Of a DNA stretch of 26,233 nt, positions 1 through 12,938 are shown one piece after another. The translations under genes and the position numbers were made by a program. The stretch comes from a virus. Taxonomy: Duplodnaviria; Heunggongvirae; Uroviricota; Caudoviricetes. Positions within the stretch are counted from its first letter, which is position 1, and each line of letters opens with the position of its first letter. The stretch lies in the IMG/VR virus record IMGVR_UViG_2565956629_000010, one strand, 5' to 3'. The notes under the pieces are model-generated. The model was not told the origin of the DNA and did no database searches. It saw only the letters and a list, made by a program, of their open reading frames with translations.

Positions 1-1053
1 TTACGGGGTAATGCCAACCGCTGCCGCCACTTTGTCGCCACTTGGCAGCGTTGCCAGAGGATTGAAACGGAGCGCCGTTTCCAGATGATCCGGTGCCAGA
101 TGTGCGTAACGCATAGTCATTTTTATATCGTGGTGTCCGAGAATTTTTTGTAAAGCCAGAATGTTTCCACCCGACATCATGAAGTGCGCCGCAAACGTAT
201 GGCGCAGAACGTGTGTGAGTTGACCGCGAGGGAGCACGATAGACGTTTTTTCCATCACGGATAAAAATTGAAAATAGCAGTCTGTGAAGAAATTGAACCC
301 ATCAAGCGCCATGATCTCTTCGTAAAGCTCTTTACTGATAGGGATGCTTCTGTTTTTCTTCCCCTTCGTTCTTACAAAGGTAATTCGGTATTTGGTCACC
401 TGTGAGCGGGTAAGATTTACGGCTTCTCGCCAGCGTGCGCCTGTGCTTAAGCATATCTTAACTACCAGTGCCAGAATTGGGTCCTGACGTTTGCAATCAG
501 CTAGTAATTCAACAATCTGCTCATGGGTAAGCCATGCCATCTCTTTTTCTGCGATGGTGAATTTTCGCATGTTCTCCAGTGGGTTCGGATACGACCATTC
601 GCCCAGGCGGGATAGTTCGCTAAAAACACTACTTAGATAGCTTTGCTCCAGGTTAATGGTGACCGGGCTTGCTCCTTTCTTCCATTTCTCACTGAAGTAG
701 ATCTCACCTGTCAGGCGTTTATCTCGATAGTGGGCAAACATTTTAGAGGTTAGATCAGTTGCAAGGGGATTGCCCAGAGCGTCAACCATCAGCAGCAATT
801 TGTCATAGACATGCTGCCCAGCAGTCAGAGATTTACCATGTAGTTTGAACCATAGCTCAACCACGTCTTTCAGTGTTCGACGATCCACTGATTCACCCAG
901 CCAGGGCTTTGCTTCGGTTTCTTCCATCGTGTGACGCTCAAAAGCCAGTGCTTCGCCTTTGGTGGCGAATTGTTTACGCACACGACGCCCACTACGTCCG
1001 GCGGGGTAACATTCGCAAAGCCATTTTCCTGTGGTGAGTTTTCGTACTGCCAT
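1..1053 (-). CDS. int: P2/186-family tyrosine integrase
   Basis: 350-aa ORF. N-terminus MAVRKLTTGKWLCECYPAGRSGRRVRK is, from memory, typical of P2-like integrases. C-terminal catalytic region has HxxR (HVLRHTFA) and a terminal Tyr (MTMRYAHL). Stop codon is at window position 1-3, so the gene is complete and attL lies outside the window. Confidence 0.9.
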   Translation of the reverse strand: MAVRKLTTGKWLCECYPAGRSGRRVRKQFATKGEALAFERHTMEETEAKPWLGESVDRRTLKDVVELWFKLHGKSLTAGQHVYDKLLLMVDALGNPLATDLTSKMFAHYRDKRLTGEIYFSEKWKKGASPVTINLEQSYLSSVFSELSRLGEWSYPNPLENMRKFTIAEKEMAWLTHEQIVELLADCKRQDPILALVVKICLSTGARWREAVNLTRSQVTKYRITFVRTKGKKNRSIPISKELYEEIMALDGFNFFTDCYFQFLSVMEKTSIVLPRGQLTHVLRHTFAAHFMMSGGNILALQKILGHHDIKMTMRYAHLAPDHLETALRFNPLATLPSGDKVAAAVGITP

Positions 1054-1058
1054 AATAA

Positions 1059-1078
1059 AGCCCTCATATCAGAGGGCT
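1059..1078 (-). promoter_or_regulatory. stem-loop overlapping the int ribosome-binding site
   Basis: Perfect 7-bp inverted repeat AGCCCTC (1059-1065) / GAGGGCT (1072-1078) with a 6-nt loop. On the minus strand the 3' arm contains GAGGG about 7 nt upstream of the int ATG, followed by TTTATTATG. Confidence 0.3.
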
Positions 1079-1139: not shown

Positions 1140-2657
1140 TTAATCAAATGATGTGGCCAGTTCAATTAATTCAATGTAATTATGTAAGGCATAAAAAGAT
1201 GTATTCAGACCATTCTCTATAAGGGCTCCTTGCAAATACTTTATAGCTGTATCACCATCAATAGGGCCTTGTTGAGATATAATCATTAGTGAATTTTGCC
1301 CATTGTTTTTTATACTTGATTTAAGCATGTTTATATTATTAATAAAATACAATGCAACATCTAAGTAATTTATTAATGTTAAATTTATTTTGGGCTCGAT
1401 CTGTGAGATGAATAATCTACTGCTCGCCGTTCTATAGATATAATTGACACCTATTCTTTGCTGATTTGTATCAAGATTTAATTCAAGGATGGCTTGAGAA
1501 ACACCTTTTAAATTGGAGCTTTGCTTTATCGAATCAGTGAAACGTTGTGCTGCATTTCTTCGACCAATTAGTCCATCTATAATTTGACGATCCTTATCAT
1601 ATATAATCATTAGCGAAATTATAAAAATATAATCTACTTTCTTTTTGACTAAATCAGATTTAAGAATGTCTATTAACCTTTCAGTATTTCGGATTGAGTC
1701 TCTTAGATTTAACCCAAATGCTTCAAATACGTTGGAAATATTTATTGAAAAGTCTTCTAATGTTGCTGTTAGTGGGTATGTTTTTGATGTGATATTTTCA
1801 AAATCGGTACCAATATAATCACCAACAACACCATTAATTAAATCTTTAAGTTCAGGTTGTTTTAAAGTAAATCTTCTATGAAAAAAACGGCCTAAATAGT
1901 CATTTGCGGAAAAATCATTACCGTAAACATTCTTGATTGAATGTTGTAATTGATCTGTGTCAGTAGCAATAATAAAGACAAAATTTTTAATATCGAATAT
2001 ATGTTTAACAATCTCTAAAAGAGAAATTGCATAATCTGGCCTGCATCTGTCTAATTCATCTATAAAGATAAATATAGGACATGAAAAACTATTTTCATAT
2101 GCCAACCTAGACCATAACGTTAGTTCTTTTTTTAATACCTTAATGCTCTTCAGTTTTTCCTGGTGTTCCTTCAGCATTATTAATGAGGCTTCTTTGGCTA
2201 TATCACCTACGTTATCTACTCCTGCATAAGTCTTGATTAGGCCAGATATGATTTCAGGTAGAACACCTTTTGTAAAGCGTCCGATAGCATGGCCGCTTTG
2301 TATCAATCGAGCATCAAGTTTTCCTGCATATGTTTGCAATTGTTGTGACAAAGAAGAAAAAAGGGTTAAAAATGCATCATCAGAAAAGTCTTGCTTCCAG
2401 GCATCAATGTAAACGCATGGGTGTGCATCTTTTATTGAGTTATAAAATCTCTTTATGAAAAAACTTTTACCAGCTCCCCATTCTGCATTAAGGTTGATTA
2501 CCGTGTTGTTCTTTTGCCCCTTTTCCTTAAGATAAAAATATAGATATTCTGCATAGTGTCTCCGATTAAGTTTGTCTTTGGAAAGAATTTCCTCTTCGTC
2601 GTCTAATATAAAGGTAGTTTCTTCATCCCAGTTCCAATTACAATCACCACATTTCAC
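1140..2657 (-). CDS. KAP-family P-loop NTPase (putative defence or abortive-infection effector)
   Basis: 505-aa ORF. Walker A NAEWGAGKSFF; Walker B-like hhhhDELDRC (IFIFIDELDRCRP), which I recall as characteristic of KAP NTPases. GTG start at 2657 with GGAG about 9 nt upstream. Visibly AT-rich compared with flanking phage genes. Only 25 bp downstream of the preceding gene on the same strand. Confidence 0.55.
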   Translation of the reverse strand: MKCGDCNWNWDEETTFILDDEEEILSKDKLNRRHYAEYLYFYLKEKGQKNNTVINLNAEWGAGKSFFIKRFYNSIKDAHPCVYIDAWKQDFSDDAFLTLFSSLSQQLQTYAGKLDARLIQSGHAIGRFTKGVLPEIISGLIKTYAGVDNVGDIAKEASLIMLKEHQEKLKSIKVLKKELTLWSRLAYENSFSCPIFIFIDELDRCRPDYAISLLEIVKHIFDIKNFVFIIATDTDQLQHSIKNVYGNDFSANDYLGRFFHRRFTLKQPELKDLINGVVGDYIGTDFENITSKTYPLTATLEDFSINISNVFEAFGLNLRDSIRNTERLIDILKSDLVKKKVDYIFIISLMIIYDKDRQIIDGLIGRRNAAQRFTDSIKQSSNLKGVSQAILELNLDTNQQRIGVNYIYRTASSRLFISQIEPKINLTLINYLDVALYFINNINMLKSSIKNNGQNSLMIISQQGPIDGDTAIKYLQGALIENGLNTSFYALHNYIELIELATSFD

Positions 2658-2682
2658 TATGAAGTCTCCATGAAAAATTTAC

Positions 2683-3606
2683 TTAATGTAAACAACTTAT
2701 AATAACTTTTGCAATAAACTCAATATCTGTAAGCGAACATTCAAAAGAGTGATTTTGGGATGAAATATAAACTCGTCCTTTAGGTAGTCGAGTTATCATT
2801 CTAAATGAATTCTCTCCATCAATATTTACTAGCCACTTACCATCATGTACATCTTTAAAACCCATTTCACATATTAATTCAGAGTCTTCGGTAGATACTA
2901 CGAATGCATTTTTTAAATTGGAAGGTAGAAAGCATGGGTCAAATAAATATGAGCCATCATTTATTAACTTGCCATTGATTAATACTTTTTTCACTAATGT
3001 TAAAGTATCTTTATTTTTTGCGTTTTTCATTTCTCCTGTACCAAATGAAATCCATTCAATAGAATGGCCCGTTTCTATTGCACACTGCAAAACCCAGTCT
3101 GCAGGAAAAATGTCACGCATGTATCGTGTGGCTAATGTGCTTTTTGAAATACCTAGGTGATCAGCTAATGCTTGGCGCGTTTTGTAACCGTAAGCCTCGA
3201 CAATTCGTTCTATTGTTGCCTTACCCCCTCGGTTAAAATTCATGAGTTTTTCATTATCGAACTTTATAGTGGGAATGTATACTTCATTGCAAAGGCCATT
3301 AACGGCATGTTTTTCAGAATATTGCTCTGATGAAGGAGCAGTATCTGAACCAAGAACTAACCATTCAATTGATGCTCCTGTTTCTATGGAACATATAACA
3401 ACCCAATCTGCAGGAAAGGTATTACGTGCATATCTGTTGGCCATAGTACTTTGGGAAATACCTAGATGATTACATAATGCCTGTCGTGACTTGAAGCCAT
3501 AGGCTAGGAGTATACGCTCAATAACTTTTTGCCCTCCACGATTCTGCATAACTATTGCTTTCAGATCGTTTTTGATATGGCTAAATTTTAATTTTTGAGT
3601 TGACAT
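2683..3606 (-). CDS. CI-repressor paralog with tandemly duplicated N-terminal HTH domain
   Basis: 307-aa ORF. Two consecutive copies of the CI N-terminal domain (RGGQKVIERILLAYGFKSRQALCNHLGISQSTMANRY...FPADWVVICSIETGASIEWL and RGGKATIERIVEAYGYKTRQALADHLGISKSTLATRYMRDIFPADWVLQCAIETGHSIEWI), then a C-terminal domain homologous to the CTD of the adjacent 191-aa repressor (KLINDGSYLFDPCFLPSNLKNAFV...HDGKWLVNIDGE...ITRLPKGR). Confidence 0.6.
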   Translation of the reverse strand: MSTQKLKFSHIKNDLKAIVMQNRGGQKVIERILLAYGFKSRQALCNHLGISQSTMANRYARNTFPADWVVICSIETGASIEWLVLGSDTAPSSEQYSEKHAVNGLCNEVYIPTIKFDNEKLMNFNRGGKATIERIVEAYGYKTRQALADHLGISKSTLATRYMRDIFPADWVLQCAIETGHSIEWISFGTGEMKNAKNKDTLTLVKKVLINGKLINDGSYLFDPCFLPSNLKNAFVVSTEDSELICEMGFKDVHDGKWLVNIDGENSFRMITRLPKGRVYISSQNHSFECSLTDIEFIAKVIISCLH

Positions 3607-3656: not shown

Positions 3657-4232
3657 TTACTCAAAGTACTTAACTGTTATGCTTATAATTTTTCCAATAA
3701 TTTCGATTTCTTCTTTTTTACATTCGAAAGCCCTATTTCCACCTTCAACTAAGATTCTTCCACCAGGTAAACGAGTGATATCGCGGATTGTTACTTCGGC
3801 ATCAATACTTATTACCCATTTGCCGTCACGAATATCGTTAAACTCTTTATCGCAAATAAAAACGGAATTGTTATCGGTGATTACAAACGGATTTTTGAGC
3901 GTAGATGGTAGAAATTCTTTATCGAAAATATAAAAACCATCTTCCTGCAAGGTTCCATCAGATAATACATATTTAACGACTTCCATAGTATTTGTATTAC
4001 CTGAAGTTTGCTTTGAACCATGTCCGGTCGTGAGCCAGTTAAGCGAGGCGCCCGTTTCAAGTGCGCACTGGATTACCCATTCAGCAGGGAATGAGTCACG
4101 CATATAGCGTGTGGCGAGAGTACTTTTAGAGATTCCTAAGTGATCGCACAACGCCTGTCGAGTCTTGAAGCCATATGCTTCTACCATGCGCTCTATAGCG
4201 CCTCGTCCGCCTTTCTCCAAATTCATGGTCAC
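3657..4232 (-). CDS. cI: 186-type CI immunity repressor
   Basis: 191-aa ORF divergent from the apl-like gene. N-terminal HTH region (AYGFKTRQALCDHLGISKSTLATRYMRDSFPAEWVIQCALETGASLNWLTTG) and C-terminal domain. Size and position match my recollection of phage 186 CI (about 192 aa). Confidence 0.7.
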   Translation of the reverse strand: MTMNLEKGGRGAIERMVEAYGFKTRQALCDHLGISKSTLATRYMRDSFPAEWVIQCALETGASLNWLTTGHGSKQTSGNTNTMEVVKYVLSDGTLQEDGFYIFDKEFLPSTLKNPFVITDNNSVFICDKEFNDIRDGKWVISIDAEVTIRDITRLPGGRILVEGGNRAFECKKEEIEIIGKIISITVKYFE

Positions 4233-4351
4233 TCCAAGTGAACTTTTGTCTTGACGATTTCATTATGCGATCGTATGTTTATGATGTTCACAAAATACAA
4301 ACGATCCGTATTCGTCCTGATTAATCAACATTAAACGAGGAATGTTGCATC
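4233..4351. promoter_or_regulatory. immunity switch region between cI and apl (candidate lytic and lysogenic promoters and operator half-sites)
   Basis: Rightward candidate: -35 TTGACG (4251-4256), 17-nt spacer, -10 TATGTT (4274-4279). Leftward candidate: -35 TGAACA (complement of 4284-4289), -10 CATAAT (complement of 4262-4267). Inverted half-sites GTGAAC (4238-4243) / GTTCAC (4286-4291) flank them. GAGGAA RBS precedes the apl ATG. Confidence 0.3.
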
Positions 4352-4605: not shown

Positions 4606-5115
4606 ATGTTTGATTACCAAGTTTCCAAACACCCGCATTTTGATGAAGCCTGTAGAGCTTTTGCACTTCGTCACAATATGGCGAAGCTGGCAGAACGTGC
4701 AGGAATGAATGTCCAGACTCTGCGAAACAAACTCAACCCAGATCAACCGCATCAGCTCAATGCGCCAGAAATCTGGCTGCTTACCGATCTGACTGAAGAT
4801 TCAACGCTGGTAGATGGCTTTCTGGCACAGATTCACTGCCTGCCATGTGTACCGATTAATGAGGTGGCAAAAGAGAAACTGCCGCATTACGTCATGAGTG
4901 CAACTGCAGAGATAGGGCGTGTCGCGGCAGGTGCGGTTTCTGGCGATGTAAAAACCAGTGCAGGCCGTCGTGATGCGATCAGCAGCATTAACTCTGTTAC
5001 ACGACTGATGGCGCTGGCTGCTGTTTCATTGCAGGCCCGTTTACAGGCTAATCCTGCGATGGCGAGTGCAGTTGATACCGTGACTGGCCTCGGTGCTTCA
5101 TTCGGTTTGCTGTGA
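4606..5115 (+). CDS. cII: CII-like lysogeny-establishment activator
   Basis: ATG at 4606 with GAGG RBS at 4594-4597; the ORF-track start at 4600 is a TTG. Gives 169 aa, the size I recall for 186 CII. N-terminus [43 protein letters not shown] contains an HTH and matches my memory of 186 CII. Confidence 0.6.
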
Positions 5116-5122
5116 GGTGCTT

Positions 5123-5323
5123 ATGCTGACGAAAGAACCATCATTTGCATCGCTGCTGGTAAAACAAAGTCCGGCAATGCACTACGGTCACGGCTGGATC
5201 ATGGGTGAGGATGGTAAACGCTGGCATCCGTGCCGTTCACAAGATGAATTGCTGGCAGAACTATCAACGAAAAAACGGGGGAACCAATGGCTATTGAAGG
5301 CGCTGCGGCGACTGTTCCATTAA
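5123..5323 (+). CDS. hypothetical early protein (fil position in 186)
   Basis: ATG at 5123 preceded by GAGGTG. 66 aa, basic, Cys/His-containing. Position after cII. Confidence 0.3.
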   Translation: MLTKEPSFASLLVKQSPAMHYGHGWIMGEDGKRWHPCRSQDELLAELSTKKRGNQWLLKALRRLFH

Positions 5324-5628
5324 GCCCCGGTGAACGCCTGAATGGACTTAATCATATTGCGGAATTAAGAGCGAAAGTTTTTGGCCTGAATATTGAGTCA
5401 GAGCTTGAGCGGTTTATTAAAGATATGCGTGATCCACGGGATATCAATAATGAACAAAATAAACGGGCACTGGCTGCCATATTCTTTATGGCAAAAATTC
5501 CAGCTGAACGTCATAGCATCAGCATTAATGAGCTGACCACTGACGAAAAGCGGGAGCTGATTAAAGCAATGAATCATTTTCGTGCAGTGGTGAGCTTATT
5601 TCCCAGACGGCTAACCATGCCGAATTAA
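5287..5628 (+). CDS. hypothetical early protein
   Basis: 113-aa ORF in the early rightward operon. No recognisable motifs. Confidence 0.4.
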   Translation: MAIEGAAATVPLSPGERLNGLNHIAELRAKVFGLNIESELERFIKDMRDPRDINNEQNKRALAAIFFMAKIPAERHSISINELTTDEKRELIKAMNHFRAVVSLFPRRLTMPN

Positions 5629-5695
5629 CCAACTAATGAAATTCATGGCGTAAACCCGCCAGGCATCCCTTTATCTAAATTCAGGAGAATTGATT

Positions 5696-5929
5696 ATGCG
5701 TAATATTGAAACCCTCACGACTAAAACCGGACTGGATGATGCAGGGCTTAATATTTTACTGACAGAGGCTCGTCTGGAAGAACGCCGGGCAAGGGCTGAA
5801 GCAATGGCAGCTCGCCTTGATAGCTTGGCGTGTCATATCACATCCCGCCAGCTAAACCACGTCGAAGCGGCAGAACTGCTGCGTGTGACTGCTGAAGCAA
5901 TCCAGAACGAAGCGCAGGAGATCCACTGA
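5696..5929 (+). CDS. hypothetical early protein
   Basis: ATG at 5696 with AGGAG at 5683-5687. 77 aa. Stop overlaps the start of the next gene (ATGA). Confidence 0.45.
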   Translation: MRNIETLTTKTGLDDAGLNILLTEARLEERRARAEAMAARLDSLACHITSRQLNHVEAAELLRVTAEAIQNEAQEIH

Positions 5930-6156
5930 TGGCTGATGCAATGGATCTCGTACAGCAGCGCGTTGAAGAAGAACGCCAGCGTCATATCCGTGCTGCCCGC
6001 GCCAAAACGCCGGGCGTATCCCGCGTGCTTTGCATTGAGTGTGAAGCACCAATTCCGCCAGCACGACGTCGCGCCATTCCGGGTGTGCAGCTTTGCATTA
6101 CCTGTCAGGAAATCGCAGAGCTGAAAGGCAAACATTACAACGGAGGTGCTGTATGA
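5929..6156 (+). CDS. TraR/DksA-family C4 zinc-finger protein
   Basis: 75 aa with CIECEAPIPPARRRAIPGVQLCITCQE, a C-x2-C-x17-C-x2-C pattern typical of TraR/DksA-type zinc fingers found in P2-like early regions. Confidence 0.65.
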   Translation: MADAMDLVQQRVEEERQRHIRAARAKTPGVSRVLCIECEAPIPPARRRAIPGVQLCITCQEIAELKGKHYNGGAV

Positions 6157-7010
6157 GCACCATCCTGAAATGGGCGGGTAATAAAACCGCCATTATGCCA
6201 GAACTGAAAAAATACCTTCCTGCTGGCCCGCGACTGGTTGAACCTTTCGCGGGTTCTTGTGCTGTGATGATAGAGACGGATTACCCCAGCTATCTTGTTG
6301 CGGATATTAATCCTGATTTAATCAACCTCTATAAAAAGGTTGCTGCTGATTGCGAGGCGTTTATATCTCGTGCCAGAGCTTTATTTGAGGAAGCAAACAG
6401 GGAGGTGGCTTATTACAACATAAGGCAGGAGTTTAATTACTCCACTGAAATTACTGATTTCATGAAAGCGGTATATTTCCTGTATCTCAATCGTCATGGT
6501 TACCGTGGGTTATGTCGCTATAACAAGAGCGGGCATTTCAACATTCCCTACGGGAATTATAAAAATCCGTATTTCCCTGAAAAAGAAATTCGCAAATTTG
6601 CAGAAAAAGCCCAGCGAGCAACGTTTATCTGCGCCAGCTTTGATGAAACGCTGGCGATGTTGAAGGCGGGGGATGTGGTGTATTGCGATCCGCCTTATGA
6701 CGGTACGTTTTCCGGCTATCACACTGATGGCTTCACTGAGGATGACCAGTATCACCTGGCATCCGTTCTTGAACATCGATCATCTGAAGGTCATCCGGTC
6801 ATTGTTTCTAACAGTGACACATCCCTGATTCGTTCGCTGTATCGCAATTTCACTCACCACTACATCAAGGCAAAACGCAGCATCGGCGTGTCGGCTGGCG
6901 AGAGTAAATCTGCAACAGAAATCATTGCTGTTTCCGGGGCGCGCTGCTGGGTGGGATTTGATCCTTCGCGTGGCGTGGATAGTTCTGCTGTGTACGAGGT
7001 GCGTGTATGA
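6153..7010 (+). CDS. dam: Dam-type DNA adenine (GATC) methyltransferase
   Basis: True start ATG 6153 with GGAGG at 6143-6147; the ORF track extends upstream spuriously. Resembles E. coli Dam along its length: [35 protein letters not shown] catalytic motif ([10 protein letters not shown]). Confidence 0.85.
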
Positions 7011-9421
7011 GTCATGATGATATGAGCAACTCTAGCGGCTTTAACGAGGCCGCTGCAGCATTTTCATGGAACGGCCCGAAAAAGGCCATTAACCCTTATC
7101 TGGACCCGGCGGAAGTTGCGCCGGAGTCTGCACTTTCAAACATGATCACTCTGTACGCTGCCGATAACGAGCAGGAACAGCTGCGCCGCGATGCACTGAG
7201 TGAGCAGGTCTGGGAGCGTTATTTCTTTAATGAATCCCGTGATCCTGTCCAGCGCGAAATGGAGCAGGATAATCTCATTAGTCGGGCAAAGCTGGCGCAT
7301 GAGCAGCAGCGTTTTAACCCGGACATGGTCATTATGGCGGACGTCAGCGCCCAGCCCACCCACATCAGCAAGCCGCTGATGCAACGTATCGAATACTTCA
7401 GCAGCCTGGGCAGGCCAAAGGCTTATTCCCGCTATTTGCGTGAGACGATTAAGTCATGTCTGGAGCGACTGGAGTATGTACGCGACAGTCAGCTATCCGC
7501 TTCTTTCCGTTTTATGGCAAGCCATCAAGGGCTTGAGGGCCTGCTGATCCTGCCTGAAATGAGTCAGGATCAGGTAAAACGCCTGTCCACCTTGGTAGCA
7601 GCGCATATGAGCATGTGTCTTGAGGCCGCTTGTGGTGATTTGTATGCCTCCGATGACGTTAAGCCAGAAGAAATCCGCAAGACATGGGAAAAGGTGGCAG
7701 CGGAAACCCTGCGTCTGGATGTTATCCCGCCTGCGTTTGAGAAACTCCGTCGGAAAAGAAACCGCCGCAAACCCGTGCCCTATGAACTCATACCGGGTTC
7801 GCTGGCACGTATGCTTTGCGCCGACTGGTGGTATCGAAAATTGTGGAAGATACGTTGCGAATGGCGGGAAGAGCAGTTGCGTGCTGTCTGCCTGGTCAGC
7901 AAAAAAGCATCTCCCTATGTCAGCTATGAAGCAGTGACGCATAAACGTGAGCAGCGCCGCAAGTCGCTGGAGTTTTTCCGTTCTCATGAACTGGTGAACG
8001 AAGACGGCGACACGCTGGATATGGAAGATGTGGTAAACGCCAGCAGCAGCAACCCGGCGCACCGCCGCAATGAGATGATGGCCTGTGTTAAAGGTCTGGA
8101 GCTTATCGCGGAAATGCGTGGTGACTGCGCCGTTTTCTACACCATTACCTGTCCGTCACGTTTCCATTCTACGCTCAATAACGGCAGACCAAACCCAACC
8201 TGGACAAATGCGACGGTAAGACAAAGCAGCGATTATCTGGTCGGCATGTTTGCTGCATTTCGTAAGGCTATGCACAAAGCCGGGTTGCGCTGGTATGGCG
8301 TGCGGGTGGCTGAGCCGCACCATGACGGTACTGTGCACTGGCATCTCATGTGTTTCATGCGCAAAAAAGACCGCCGCGCCATTACTGCATTGTTGCGTAA
8401 GTTTGCCATCCGTGAAGACCGCGAGGAACTGGGCAATAACACGGGTCCACGCTTTAAGTCTGAGCTGATAAACCCGCGCAAAGGAACGCCGACAAGCTAC
8501 ATCGCGAAATACATCAGTAAGAACATTGACGGACGTGGTCTGGCTGGCGAGATCAGCAAGGAAACGGGTAAATCCCTGCGTGATAACGCCGAATACGTTA
8601 ATGCCTGGGCGTCTCTGCATCGTGTTCAGCAGTTCCGCTTCTTTGGTATTCCGGGGCGTCAGGCGTACCGTGAACTTCGCTTGCTGGCTGGTCAGGCGGC
8701 AAGGCAACAGGGTGACAAAAAAGCAGGTGCGCCGGTACTGGATGACCCGCGCCTTGATGCCATCCTGGCTGCCGCTGATGCTGGCTGTTTTGCCACCTAC
8801 ATCATGAAGCAGGGCGGCGTACTGGTTCCCCGCAAATATCACCTTATCAGAACAGCTTATGAAATTAACGAAGAGCCGACCGCTTATGGCGATCACGGTA
8901 TTCGTATTTATGGCATCTGGTCACCCATTGTACAGGGCAAGATCTGCACTCATGCAATGAAATGGAAAATGGTTCGTAAGGTCGTTGACGTTCAGGAGGC
9001 GGCAGCCGACCAGGGCGCTTGCGCCCCTTGGACTCGTGGCAATAACTGTCCCCTTGCTGAAAATTTGAACCAACAAGGGAAAGACAAATCAGCTGATGGG
9101 GACTCCAGAACGGATATTACCCGTATGAATGACAAGGAGTTGCACGATTACCTGCACAGTATGAGCAAAAAAGAGCGCCGGGAACTGGCTGCAAGGTTAC
9201 GCCAGGTGAAACCGAAACGGCGTAAAGACTACAAACAGCGAATTACAGACCATCAGCGACAGCAGCTCGTCTATGAACTGAAGTCCAGGGGATTTGATGG
9301 CAGCGAGAAAGAAGTCGATTTGCTCCTTCGCGGCGGCAGTATTCCGTCAGGAGCAGGCCTGCGTATCTTCTATCGGAACCAGCGTCTGAAGGAAGATGAT
9401 AAGTGGCGGAACCTATATTAA
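7007..9421 (+). CDS. A: P2 gpA-like rolling-circle replication initiator endonuclease
   Basis: 804-aa ORF following the early genes. HUH-type motif [13 protein letters not shown], and YIAKYISK with candidate catalytic tyrosines. Start overlaps the dam stop. Confidence 0.85.
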
Positions 9422-9574: not shown

Positions 9575-9763
9575 ATGCAGGACTATTTTTTGGAGTCTTT
9601 GAAGCTCCAGCGCATTGATTTTTTTCTTAAGCTTGTAGCGGCTAGTGAGTGTAGTGATGAAGAGAAGGGGCTGGCTCTGCAGTGGGTTTCTGAATTGACT
9701 GATGAACTCATGGCAAAAATCAGAAGCCACGAATACAACCGCTCAATGGATGTCATCAGCTGA
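9575..9763 (+). CDS. small SOS-controlled protein, possible Tum-like antirepressor
   Basis: ATG at 9575 with AGGAGG at 9565-9570. 62 aa. Sits between the LexA box and the DinI-like gene; in 186 the LexA-controlled gene at this position is tum, whose C-terminal part I recall as DinI-like. Assignment is by position only. Confidence 0.35.
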   Translation: MQDYFLESLKLQRIDFFLKLVAASECSDEEKGLALQWVSELTDELMAKIRSHEYNRSMDVIS

Positions 9764-9773
9764 GGTGACTTTT

Positions 9774-10007
9774 ATGCGCATTGAAATAATGATCGATAAA
9801 GAGCAGAAGATTAGCCAGTCTACCCTGGACGCCCTTGAATCCGAGCTTTACCGCAATCTGCGCCCCCTGTATCCCAAAACGGTAATTCGCATTCGCAAAG
9901 GTAGCTCTAACGGTGTGGAACTAACCGGACTGCAACTGGATGAAGAAAGAAAACAAGTGATGAAAATTATGCAGAAGGTGTGGGAGGACGACAGCTGGCT
10001 GCATTAA
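9774..10007 (+). CDS. dinI: DinI-family protein
   Basis: ATG at 9774 with GAGG at 9763-9766. 77 aa. MRIEIMIDKEQKISQSTLDALESELYRNLRPLYP...KVWEDDSWL parallels E. coli DinI as I recall it (MRIEV...ETWESADDWF), including the acidic C-terminus. Confidence 0.7.
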   Translation: MRIEIMIDKEQKISQSTLDALESELYRNLRPLYPKTVIRIRKGSSNGVELTGLQLDEERKQVMKIMQKVWEDDSWLH

Positions 10008-10199: not shown

Positions 10200-10535
10200 T
10201 TACGAATGATCATTCTGTTTAGTCTTCATGAGAAAATCCCGAATCTTTGCCAAGTTTGAATTTTCGGGGATTGAATCCATGTACGGATCACGCTCAAACA
10301 CTAATTGCTCAGATTCAACGAAAGCCTGCCACTCTACTGGGTCTAGCTCAAATCCCATTGCTGTCATATCACTTTCATCTTCCCCCTCGATCCAGTGGAC
10401 TAAATAAAACAATTCATCATCAGGAGAATCATCCTCACCATCAACAATATCAACATCGGTTACAGTGATACGTAGGGTGGGATCGATTTTTGAGACATAA
10501 ATTCCTAACTGTGGTATAGGGGGAATATTGTTCAT
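10200..10535 (-). CDS. small highly acidic protein of unknown function
   Basis: 111-aa ORF. ATG at 10535 with AAGGAG about 8 nt upstream on the minus strand. Runs of D/E (DVDIVDGEDDSPDDE, IEGEDESD). Sits between the replication/SOS module and cos, where P2 carries old/tin. Confidence 0.5.
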   Translation of the reverse strand: MNNIPPIPQLGIYVSKIDPTLRITVTDVDIVDGEDDSPDDELFYLVHWIEGEDESDMTAMGFELDPVEWQAFVESEQLVFERDPYMDSIPENSNLAKIRDFLMKTKQNDHS

Positions 10536-10847
10536 GGAAACTCCTTTTATTGGTGTTTGCTATTTGAATAAAAATACGCCAAACAGAGTGTTAACTGTGA
10601 ATATGGAAAGAATCGTTGTAAGTACCCCGCTTAGGTGTCCCATTCTATTTTAGAGGTTCTCGTGCATATGGATTATGTTATCTGAAAGTTAACTTCCGCT
10701 TCCCGTTCACAGCGAACATTCATCTTTGTAAACCCGTATGATCCGTTTTTCAAGTGGCCATTCAGATACGGATTTTTACTTCTTTGACAGTGCATGACTA
10801 TGCTGCATGAAATCGCATGATCGATTGAGGATCGTCTTTGCTCAGAT

Positions 10848-10870
10848 CCGCCAGAACTGGCGGGCTTTTG
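10848..10870 (+). terminator. candidate intrinsic terminator upstream of cos
   Basis: GC-rich inverted repeat CCGCCAG (10848-10854) / CTGGCGG (10857-10863) with a very short loop, followed by GCTTTTG. Confidence 0.3.
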
Positions 10871-10914
10871 CTCATGTCATGCATGTGCATGAAAACCACT
10901 GCATAAAGCGGGCA

Positions 10915-10933
10915 GGCGTGGCGGGGATACGAG
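10915..10933. other. candidate cos site (cohesive-end region)
   Basis: GGCGTGGCGGGGATACGAG followed by CGCGCGC. From memory the P2 left end begins GGCGAGGCGGGGAAAGCAC, giving a 13-nt core match with one mismatch. It is a GC-rich island in an otherwise AT-rich non-coding stretch, and its orientation toward Q is the same as in P2. Confidence 0.4.
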
Positions 10934-11014
10934 CGCGCGCAATGCTATGATCTGGCTCTTTCAAAACTGTTAACGGTTCTTCACATTCTTAAATGATCAT
11001 GGTAGCTTAAGCAT

Positions 11015-11145
11015 GCACATGTAGGCAGATTTGTTGGTTGTGGTATCGCAATCAGTGATCTAAATGTTAGATGGATTCGCCTTCTGACATCCTTGTAGCC
11101 ATTCTTGGGCTGTCCTATGCTTTGCGTAAGAGTGCCTACATGTGC
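11015..11145 (+). ncRNA. putative retron msr-msd locus bounded by a2/a1 inverted repeats
   Basis: Perfect 13-bp inverted repeat GCACATGTAGGCA (11015-11027) / TGCCTACATGTGC (11133-11145) enclosing 105 nt, immediately upstream of the RT gene on the same strand. A G at 11028 directly follows the left repeat (possible branching G). Internal stem ATCTAA-ATG-TTAGAT at about 11058-11072. Possible promoter -35 TTCACA (10980-10985). Confidence 0.5.
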
Positions 11146-11180
11146 CTACCCTAACTGATAATCAAGGTTGATTTTTAGAT

Positions 11181-12938
11181 ATGGCACCCCTATCAATTTT
11201 AGAACGTTTACAAAACGCTGCTAACAGGCAAGATTTGGCTAGTATCTTGAATCTTAAAACTGCTTTTCTTACGGATGTTATTTATCGTTTAAAAGCTGAA
11301 ACGCAGTATACACAATTTACTATTCCTAAAAAAAACGGAGCGCCGAGAGTCATATCAGCACCTACCACTAAGCTCAAAGATATTCAACGTAGATTAGCTG
11401 ATGTTTTATATTTATGTCGTGCAGAAATTTATAAAAAATATAATATTAATCCAGTTTTATCTCATGGGTTTGAAAAAGAAAAGTCAATTATTACGAATGC
11501 TGAACGGCATAGAGGTAAAACGCTACTACTAAATATAGATCTTGAGGATTATTTTGATAGTTTTAATTTTGGACGTGTTAGAGGTTTTTTCTTATCAAAC
11601 AGAGATTTTAGATTAAATAATACTGTTGCTACAACGATCGCACAAATTGCATGTTTTCAGAATGGACTTCCTCAAGGAAGCCCATGCTCTCCAATTATAA
11701 GTAACTTAATCAGTGGAATTCTTGATATAAGATTATCAAAGTTAGCAAAGAAATACGGATGCAATTATTCACGGTATGCTGATGATCTTACATTTTCAAC
11801 TAATAAAAAAACATTTCCAAAAGAGATTGCTGATGTTGGCGGAGAGTCTGTAACCCTAAGTCCAACTTTAATTAAAGAGATTATAAAGGCTGGCTTTAAA
11901 ATAAATGATAAAAAGACAAGGGTTTGTTATAAAACATCACGACAAGATGTTACTGGGTTGACTGTTAATAAAAAAGTGAATGTTGGCAAAGAATATGCAA
12001 AAGTAACGCGTGCAATGGCTCATTCTCTTTATAAAGATGGTTCTTTTGTTATTGTTACTGAATCAGGAAAGATTGAAAAAGGTACATGTGCTAAATTAGA
12101 AGGCCGTTTTGGATTCATTGACTCAATAGATAAATATAATAATTTAAAACTAAAGAACGCAAGACAGTTGGAAAAGTACCAAAGTGTAAATCATGGATTA
12201 AACTACACTGCAAAATTGAATTCGAGAGAAAAAGCCTACAGTTATTTTCTATACTATAAAAATTTTCATGGAATGGAAATGCCAACAATACTCACTGAGG
12301 GTAAAACAGACCGTGTATATTTAAAGTGTGCTTTGAAGTCATTGGCGAATTCATATCCTTTATTGTTTAATTCTTCTGATGATAGCTCTAAAAATGAGTA
12401 TCGTGTTAATTTTTTTAAAGCAACTGAAAAAACAAGCTATTTTCTTGACATTTCTGGCGGTGCTACAGACTTCAAAAGATTTATATTAAGATACCAAGAA
12501 CAAAAAAAGAGGTTCGAGAAATTTAAACCAAAGCACCCTGTTATTATGCTTCTTGATAATGACTCAGGCCCTAAAGATTTATTAAATCACTTAAAGGATA
12601 AAGTAAAAAATTGTCCAAATGATGTTGATACTATTCGTAAGGCAAGGTATACCCACATATTTGACAATCTCTATTTGTTATTAACACCATTGCTTCCTGG
12701 AGGGAAAGAGTCTTGTATGGAGGATTTATTTGATAGCACGGTACTATCAACGGTGCTTGATGGAAAGACATTTAATAAATCTAATGATACGGATACAAAA
12801 ACAGAATATGGTAAGCATGTGTTTTCAACAAAGGTTATAAAGGCAAATTGTAAAACAATTAGTTTTGAAAAGTTTAAAGTTATTTTTGATGGTATTGAGG
12901 AAATTATTGCAGATTATTCAAAGAGGTGCAAAGTATAA
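11181..12938 (+). CDS. retron-type reverse transcriptase with C-terminal Toprim-like domain
   Basis: 585 aa. RT motifs: FTIPKKNGAPRVISAP, LLLNIDLEDYFDSF, LPQGSPCSPIISNL, and the catalytic YADD in YSRYADDLTFS. The C-terminal half has Toprim-like EG..D (PTILTEGKTDRVYL) and DxD (VIMLLDNDSGPKD). AT-rich. Length is close to the 586 aa I recall for the retron-Ec67 RT. Confidence 0.8.
   Translation: MAPLSILERLQNAANRQDLASILNLKTAFLTDVIYRLKAETQYTQFTIPKKNGAPRVISAPTTKLKDIQRRLADVLYLCRAEIYKKYNINPVLSHGFEKEKSIITNAERHRGKTLLLNIDLEDYFDSFNFGRVRGFFLSNRDFRLNNTVATTIAQIACFQNGLPQGSPCSPIISNLISGILDIRLSKLAKKYGCNYSRYADDLTFSTNKKTFPKEIADVGGESVTLSPTLIKEIIKAGFKINDKKTRVCYKTSRQDVTGLTVNKKVNVGKEYAKVTRAMAHSLYKDGSFVIVTESGKIEKGTCAKLEGRFGFIDSIDKYNNLKLKNARQLEKYQSVNHGLNYTAKLNSREKAYSYFLYYKNFHGMEMPTILTEGKTDRVYLKCALKSLANSYPLLFNSSDDSSKNEYRVNFFKATEKTSYFLDISGGATDFKRFILRYQEQKKRFEKFKPKHPVIMLLDNDSGPKDLLNHLKDKVKNCPNDVDTIRKARYTHIFDNLYLLLTPLLPGGKESCMEDLFDSTVLSTVLDGKTFNKSNDTDTKTEYGKHVFSTKVIKANCKTISFEKFKVIFDGIEEIIADYSKRCKV

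Follow-up and report, generated by a model that had tools for sequence, protein, structure and literature searches.

Two decades have passed since KAP NTPases were put forward as conflict proteins, and protection against phages by such proteins has been shown only recently, for proteins from Enterococcus and gut metagenomes (one of which, when modelled, has transmembrane helices) and for "Reve". Here we describe a KAP-family P-loop NTPase of 505 residues, the KAP protein, encoded at 1140..2657 on the minus strand of a 26,233-nucleotide stretch of DNA (IMG/VR record IMGVR_UViG_2565956629_000010; the whole stretch is called the window below). The window covers the left-hand part of an Escherichia coli prophage of the 186-like type (Peduoviridae). 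The gene occupies a fixed address, between the repressor gene cI and the integrase gene int, in 186-like prophages of E. coli (including the laboratory-tractable strains E2348/69, W and NC101), Klebsiella, Enterobacter, Yersinia and others, and its product, judged from sequence and gene context, probably serves as a single-gene anti-phage NTPase expressed in the lysogen. The family is a soluble, Gram-negative counterpart of the KAP proteins that have been tested. No current view is overturned by the locus, whose value is that of a well-defined candidate for experiments and not that of a surprise. It offers a convenient system for learning how a defence ATPase without a recognisable effector stops a phage, and swaps between natural alleles, whose differences lie mainly in the C-terminal domain, allow specificity to be mapped. 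In the literature we found no description of the cI-KAP-int address across genera, of a family-specific C-terminal fold, or of an experimental test.

Among the described systems are KAP NTPases, fused to C-terminal regions of unknown nature, that defend Enterococcus against phages and need both Walker B and the C-terminal region to do so (PMC13552941), and Reve, an active single-gene KAP system from P4 satellites (PMC13586616). The Enterococcus protein EF_KAP, the metagenomic KAPs and Reve are, like the KAP protein of the window, single proteins of mobile elements in which an N-terminal KAP NTPase is followed by a C-terminal region without a known fold. PifA, the F-plasmid protein behind T7 exclusion, shares the KAP NTPase domain (1.1e-16 over residues 26-273 of the KAP protein), and it too is a single mobile-element protein, one that excludes phages and is said to lack transmembrane helices (PMC13001434). 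The homology to PifA is not full-length, however: only positions 15-261 of the 720 in its profile align, and the C-terminal regions are unrelated. Similarity to QatA of the QatABCD system is local, around Walker B (PADLOC 6.8e-14, NCBIfam 1.9e-11); the NCBIfam score of 43.3 bits compares with a cut-off of 600, no qatB, qatC or qatD lies nearby, and the protein does not qualify as a QatA. The structural comparison with known defence NTPases that an initial annotation of the window had proposed was run, and the closest solved folds to the model of the KAP protein are those of RdrA from the RADAR system (PDB 8fnt and 8fnu), at a sequence identity of only 11-13% and with no hidden Markov model match to RdrA at E<=0.01 in PADLOC. 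RdrA is described as a two-layered AAA+ heptamer, with no hint of transmembrane helices (PMC9994260). It is longer than the KAP protein (about 790 residues against 505) and acts with the deaminase RdrB, whereas no such gene is adjacent here, the neighbours being int and cI2, the gene of a CI paralog. A further comparison is offered by Tmn, a P-loop NTPase without an effector whose output comes from the ATPase assembly (ATP turnover and Mg2+ export) (PMC13001434); it differs in belonging to the YobI family, in being an integral membrane decamer and in carrying transmembrane helices inside the P-loop domain. By analogy, Tmn serves as a model for defence without an effector domain, and, to judge from PifA and RdrA, solubility is not unusual among KAP-type defence ATPases. 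The KAP gene adds to a known type, since its RefSeq annotation, its PADLOC class PDC-S20 and the soluble PifA and RdrA were already known.

Profile searches place the KAP protein firmly in its family. Pfam KAP_NTPase (PF07693) matches with 156.7 bits against a cut-off of 20 (E 1e-45; residues 32-303, profile positions 1-257 of 293). The two motifs named in the initial annotation were located, Walker A as AEWGAGKS at residues 58-65 (2463..2486, minus strand; pattern GxxGxGK[ST]) and Walker B as IFIFIDELDR at residues 195-204 (2046..2075, minus strand; the KAP-type hhhhDE[LI]DR), and both are invariant across 44 relatives (W60, G61, G63 and K64 in the first; I199 to C205 around the second). No full-length homology to a characterised housekeeping NTPase, which would have spoken for a non-defence role, was found: neither the whole protein nor the profile of its full-length alignment gave a meaningful match to PDB sequences, and NCBIfam returned only weak matches to QatA and HypB. 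The best PADLOC match is to PDC-S20 (model PDLC04959, 8.2e-78, 261 bits), over protein residues 20-389 (73%) and profile positions 11-382 of 464 (80%); coverage is borderline on the C-terminal side, the last 115 or so residues lying outside the match. PHROGs assigns the protein to phrog_8614, of unknown function, and a literature search for "PDC-S20" or WP_000649630, the RefSeq accession of the protein, returned nothing.

The protein also appears soluble, as had been suggested from the absence of a transmembrane insert between the Walker motifs. In 19-residue Kyte-Doolittle windows, for which the usual transmembrane threshold is 1.6, its maximum is 1.43, in the strand and helix after Walker B, where the residues include K, H, D and K; the peak between the two Walker motifs is about 0.65 (a hand calculation on the same scale). 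Transmembrane helices associated with the NTPase domain, an optional trait of many KAP members, are thus missing at the level of hydrophobicity. A window above 1.6 does occur in 18 of 120 relatives. In the ten most hydrophobic of the 120, the top window contains charged residues and lies outside the insert between Walker A and Walker B, where the maximum is at most 1.25. The gene is AT-rich for its surroundings, with 31.9% GC against 51.3% for the remaining prophage, and this explains the abundance of Ile, Leu and Asn in the C-terminal half (13.6%, 11.6% and 8.8% of residues 256-505). That half had been called Asn/Ile/Lys-rich, which is right for Ile and Asn but wrong for Lys, at only 5.6% and below the level of the N-terminal half.

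The 1140-2657 frame is uninterrupted, and its GTG is the first start codon that follows the upstream in-frame stop. A GGAG Shine-Dalgarno sequence (2666..2669, minus strand) precedes the GTG by 8 nucleotides, and a gap of 25 nucleotides separates the KAP gene from the stop of the CI paralog. RefSeq has a coding sequence at equal coordinates in E2348/69 (WP_000649630.1, "KAP family P-loop NTPase fold protein"). Relatives use TTG (the 79% identical protein) or ATG (the 63% identical one) at the equivalent position, each behind GGAG or AGGAG, so that the start directly after the CI paralog, as first annotated, is both sound and conserved.

The setting of the gene is that of cargo. The window is 99.7% identical to the prophage of enteropathogenic E. 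coli E2348/69, which is inserted there beside rcdA/ybjJ, and its first 4.4 kb are 100% identical to E. coli Ec1117. The slot is bordered downstream by int (1..1053, minus strand), encoding a P2/186-type tyrosine integrase (Pfam Int_N and Phage_integrase; RefSeq), and on the other side lies the ordinary 186-type cI (3657..4232, minus strand; 191 residues; RefSeq start at 4226; Pfam, RefSeq), next to the switch formed by the candidate promoters pR and pL. Order is strict: cI, none or one extra gene, KAP and int follow one another in all 29 of the best IMG/VR loci, and the same cI-KAP-int order holds in six loci examined separately. A KAP gene is found between cI and int in Klebsiella (79% identity), Enterobacter (63%), Yersinia (51%) and an E. 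coli isolate assembly (34%), the identity across the examined slot loci ranging from 34 to 100%. E. coli W and NC101 carry divergent KAP alleles in the cI-int position at the same attachment site, and their products match PDC-S20 models at 4e-82 and 2e-171, respectively. On its strand and its place in a 186-type regulatory region (with cII, fil and gpA upstream), the KAP gene is accessory cargo of the cI-int slot.

Other cargo occupies the same slot in related phages. In Escherichia phage vB_EcoM-813R9 it holds (4636-6312) a gene for a 558-residue protein with DUF4041 and T5orf172/MUG113 domains that matches PADLOC PD-Lambda-1 at 3e-120; because PD-Lambda-1 is a validated defence gene, the slot itself supports a defence reading of KAP. 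(GenBank names the vB_EcoM-813R9 protein "chromosome segregation ATPase".) Klebsiella phage 4LV2017 has an unrelated 349-residue gene there. Both KAP alleles and PD-Lambda-1 being found there, the junction of cI and int in 186-like E. coli phages is documented as a slot for defence cargo. Surveys of P2-like phages treat the slot as a minor hotspot and no more; the minor hotspot that they place in P2-like phages lies at int-primase (8% of P2 systems), and a cI-int hotspot is described in the P2-like, K139-like phages of Vibrio (PMC13586616, PMC9122126). The extra gene between cI and KAP encodes 327 residues in Yersinia enterocolitica (4986-5969), with weak, below-cut-off coiled-coil matches and no PADLOC match, and in E. 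coli NC101 it is a 60-residue open reading frame (4158-4340), also without a PADLOC match; these genes may be accessory partners or separate cargo. Of the 105 pairs of loci whose int proteins are at least 95% identical, 52 have KAP proteins no more than 45% identical, from which it follows that KAP alleles are exchanged independently of int. They are never parted from their cI, no discordant pair being found among 36 loci, and the correlation of pairwise KAP and cI identities is modest (Spearman 0.36).

Among the candidates scored, 912 relatives of the KAP protein were found at E < 1e-5. Relatives are encoded in at least 596 matched stretches of species-representative genomes and at least 353 in IMG/VR viral contigs. 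Full-length relatives occur in Enterobacterales and Aeromonas, and ones with about 70% coverage in Pseudoalteromonas and Vibrio. The allele of the window is rare, present in 17 of 5426 complete E. coli genomes and intact in all 17; roughly 1135 of the 5426 match some part of the 4.4-kb int-KAP-cI2-cI region, which in the records listed is int. No conserved partner gene emerged when the upstream and downstream open reading frames of 130 relatives were clustered: the largest clusters had 9 and 14 members, and the cluster representatives that were scanned had either no Pfam family or belonged to unrelated genes (a GH108 endolysin, GcvP, TauE, DUF6414). The relatives in Pseudoalteromonas and Aeromonas are chromosomal singletons between housekeeping genes. 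On this distribution the KAP gene is a stand-alone gene, in keeping with PDC-S20 as a single-gene type, and its only neighbours in the prophage slot are cI and int genes. Outside prophages, Ewingella americana has a 37% identical KAP (7001-8509) preceded by a gene for a 76-residue HTH_3/XRE protein (6713-6943); this order echoes the cI-KAP order of the prophages, and no such upstream helix-turn-helix gene was seen beside the Pseudoalteromonas or Aeromonas relatives.

Between alleles the synonymous sites have reached saturation; estimates of omega, where they can be made, run from 0.03 to 0.08 for the ATPase core and from 0.12 to 0.31 for the C-terminal domain, and both halves are therefore under purifying selection. 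The C-terminal domain exceeds the core 3-4-fold in the nonsynonymous rate dN, and column conservation falls from 0.65-0.89 in the core to 0.25-0.36 over residues 361-480 before rising again at the tail; by these measures the C-terminal domain is the faster-diverging part of the protein. Positive selection was also considered and rejected, dN/dS, wherever an estimate was possible, being well below 1 in every segment, with no support for diversifying selection at the level of domains.

A full-length AlphaFold2 model, built from the 44-sequence alignment (mean predicted local distance difference test score, pLDDT, 83), lays the protein out as an acidic N-terminal beta-hairpin, a P-loop core with a helical insert of about 105 residues, a lid-like helical bundle and an alpha/beta C-terminal domain. 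The hairpin (residues 1-31; 2565-2657, minus strand) has a pI of 4.05 and a net charge of -7.5, is found throughout the family, and has W10 and D28 invariant. The insert, between strand 2 and Walker B (residues 86-190; 2088..2402, minus strand; from the model, hydrophobicity and conservation), takes the position of the transmembrane hairpin of membrane KAPs and is soluble here. Inside it, a segment with conserved G126, K130, P134, G139, L140, K142 and G146 (residues 126-146 or so; 2220-2282, minus strand) is modelled at a pLDDT of 44-64. After the core comes a helical bundle (residues 266-335 approximately; 1653..1862, minus strand; helices 270-281, 283-292, 300-314 and 318-333) that is probably an AAA+ lid. 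R319, at the beginning of a lid helix, is invariant and a candidate sensor-2 arginine. Helix order and this arginine indicate that the first 40 or so residues of the C-terminal region, which the initial annotation had left without a function, probably belong to the lid, which reduces the part without an assignment to about 170 residues.

That remaining part is a family-specific alpha/beta domain (residues 336-505 approximately; 1143..1652, minus strand) with the tail motif Y-x4-ELxTSF[D/E], in which Y494 and E499 are invariant. Prediction of the C-terminal half by itself, as had been suggested, yielded a confident fold: residues 296-505 alone reach a pLDDT of 91.6 and a predicted template-modelling score of 0.89, and are neither of low complexity nor disordered. 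The statement that no effector can be recognised there was upheld by Pfam (sub-threshold noise only at E <= 10, with PIEZO at 0.02 and SPATA2 at 0.08), by PDB sequence and profile searches (best E 0.22) and by fold searches, none of which gave a meaningful match. A profile search of 1.84 billion representative proteins returned 54 clusters, all of them C-termini of KAP-sized proteins (about 480-570 residues) or short possible fragments, and no other architecture is among the matches listed; as far as this search can tell, the C-terminal 170 or so residues are restricted to this KAP subfamily.

Several lines converge on an anti-phage role, namely membership of PDC-S20, the RdrA-like fold, a foreign GC content, a patchy distribution, the cI-int slot, a retron carried by the same prophage, and the KAP precedents, and with moderate confidence we favour a single-gene anti-phage NTPase expressed in the lysogen. 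What the sequences establish is that the gene is real, to which family it belongs, its fold and conserved position, and that it has neither a transmembrane insert nor a conserved partner; expression in the lysogen, activity in defence, oligomerisation and the roles of sensor and effector are inferred. Its location in the cI-int slot and its shared orientation with cI make it probable that, in the lysogen, the gene is read from the lysogenic promoter pL, for which a candidate that matches the consensus is found at 4262..4290 (minus strand), facing a candidate pR at 4251-4279 (plus strand). Such a face-to-face arrangement is known for 186-type switches (PMC7498355). The product would be a soluble AAA+/STAND-like KAP ATPase, an RdrA-like module that probably assembles into a ring; conservation of Lys64, Asp200/Glu201, the sensor-1 residues T232-D233-T234, R257, R262 and R319 suggests that it binds and hydrolyses ATP in a way that depends on oligomerisation. 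The variable C-terminal domain, together with the acidic N-terminal hairpin, may recognise a phage-derived cue. Since no effector gene is linked, the output would come either from the ATPase assembly, which might for example use ATP to remodel or sequester a component of the phage, or drain ATP, or else from the novel C-terminal domain. By such means the KAP protein, as a single-gene system, would protect the lysogen against other phages.

A number of points weigh against this reading. To our knowledge no member of PDC-S20 has been tested so far, and the name itself stands for "phage defence candidate" (PMC11514479). The match to the PDC-S20 profile ends at residue 389, the C-terminal part being unlike the profile seeds, and no effector-like domain or motif was detected in the searches above. 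Likeness to the tested Gram-positive KAPs and to Reve is one of description; EF_KAP comes from Firmicutes and has two modelled transmembrane helices where the KAP protein has none (PMC13552941). The case for transcription from pL is built on the order of the genes and the short gaps between them, the promoter scan being no better than chance: it returned no more sites than shuffled sequence does, and pL and pR remain candidates. Finally, a role bound up with the immunity region of the phage would fit the strict co-inheritance of KAP with cI just as well.

Other explanations were weighed on the same evidence. The KAP protein might be only the sensor or activator of an effector encoded elsewhere, in the host or in another part of the prophage, in the manner of RdrA or QatA. 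That its closest solved folds are those of a protein partnered with a separate deaminase (PMC9994260), that there is local similarity to QatA, and that no effector domain is recognisable in the protein itself would all suit such an arrangement. It would nevertheless leave the prophage slot and 130 relatives with no conserved neighbour gene, RdrA without a match and QatA with local ones only, and neither RdrB nor QatBCD adjacent; moreover, an unlinked partner would hamper transfer, so that relatives occurring as singletons in unrelated genera weigh against it, and we think it unlikely. Abortive infection of the PifA kind fares about the same. Under it the protein would associate peripherally with the inner membrane through the K130-P134-G146 segment and, on sensing a phage protein, bring about leakage or depolarisation. 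PifA is reported to act on the membrane while having no transmembrane helices (PMC13001434), the N-terminal 250 residues resemble it (1e-16), and the conserved, low-confidence segment sits just where membrane KAPs have their hairpin, but the similarity is confined to the NTPase domain, and the segment is only weakly hydrophobic (Kyte-Doolittle 0.65, Eisenberg hydrophobicity at most 0.42, hydrophobic moment at most 0.47), with no amphipathic membrane helix standing out.

Two further explanations turn on the neighbours of the gene. An ATPase always found between cI and int, never discordant with its cI, and in Ewingella preceded by a small helix-turn-helix gene even outside a phage, could act, instead of in defence, within the prophage's own module for lysogeny, immunity or integration, perhaps as a modulator of CI or Int or in prophage maintenance. 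We hold this to be rather improbable, as the viable phages 4LV2017 and vB_EcoM-813R9 have other cargo in the slot (a validated type of defence gene in the second), many relatives are singletons outside prophages, the GC content of the gene is atypical, and phage 186 itself is not known to have a KAP gene. A long shot of similar standing combines the two themes: the C-terminal domain of about 170 residues would be a fold not described before and itself the sensor or effector of a soluble, effector-less KAP defence ATPase, and the co-inheritance of KAP with cI, like the helix-turn-helix gene ahead of some relatives outside phages, would reflect function and not linkage, in which case the ATPase might guard the immunity state of the prophage and be triggered once the repressor is disturbed by a rival phage or satellite. 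The paralog cI2 (2683..3606, minus strand; 307 residues), which lies 25 nucleotides upstream of KAP in the same direction and has two Phage_CI_repr helix-turn-helix domains and one CI_C domain by Pfam, has in turn suggested a two-gene module in which it would partner the NTPase as antitoxin, regulator or sensor. Of the 5426 complete E. coli genomes, 17 have full-length cI2, and these seem to be the 17 with this KAP allele, since the accessions listed coincide. The KAP relatives of 79%, 63% and 34% identity, however, directly follow an ordinary, single-helix-turn-helix cI of 186-187 residues; cI2 from residue 122 to 307 shares 69% identity with the ordinary 186-residue cI ahead of the closest of them (Klebsiella); and distant KAPs have no helix-turn-helix neighbour. 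A double-helix-turn-helix CI is the only annotated repressor of phage 4LV2017, where an unrelated gene follows it, and similar ones in the Klebsiella ST437-OXA245phi4.2 phage group are annotated "repressor protein CI". The functional pairing that the initial annotation had implied is thus not supported, and a two-gene module seems very improbable indeed: cI2 is not a required partner, because the closest relatives follow an ordinary cI and the distant ones are chromosomal singletons. Directly behind a CI gene is, by gene order, the canonical position of the family and no evidence of a two-gene system.

With cI2 in tandem behind the ordinary cI, the prophage has two repressor genes. The simplest reading of the sequences is that a block of Klebsiella type, cI2 and KAP, lies downstream of a resident cI of E. 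coli type, and cI2 might give the prophage a second specificity of immunity. The gap that separates KAP from int contains, immediately before the ATG of int, a GC-rich hairpin (AGCCCTC-loop-GAGGGCT; 1059..1078, minus strand) picked up by a scan for terminator-like structures; the hairpin could limit read-through into int or occlude the ribosome-binding site of that gene. Rfam gave no match anywhere in the window.

On the plus strand the lytic operon runs through an apl/cox-like gene, cII, fil, DUF5347 and DUF2732 genes, a TraR-like gene, dam and gpA. The classical defence hotspot between gpA and the portal gene holds the retron, a 585-residue fusion of reverse transcriptase and Toprim (11181-12938, plus strand; PADLOC RT-Toprim type I-C at 2.7e-223, Pfam RVT_1 at 5e-27), which, besides KAP, gives the prophage two defence-type cargo loci. 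The msr/msd RNA expected upstream of it (10536-11180) has no Rfam match even at E <= 1. Between gpA and the retron lie an open reading frame of 111 residues (10200-10535, minus strand) with no family match and a gene for a DinI-like protein (9702-10007, plus strand; Pfam 1.2e-22).

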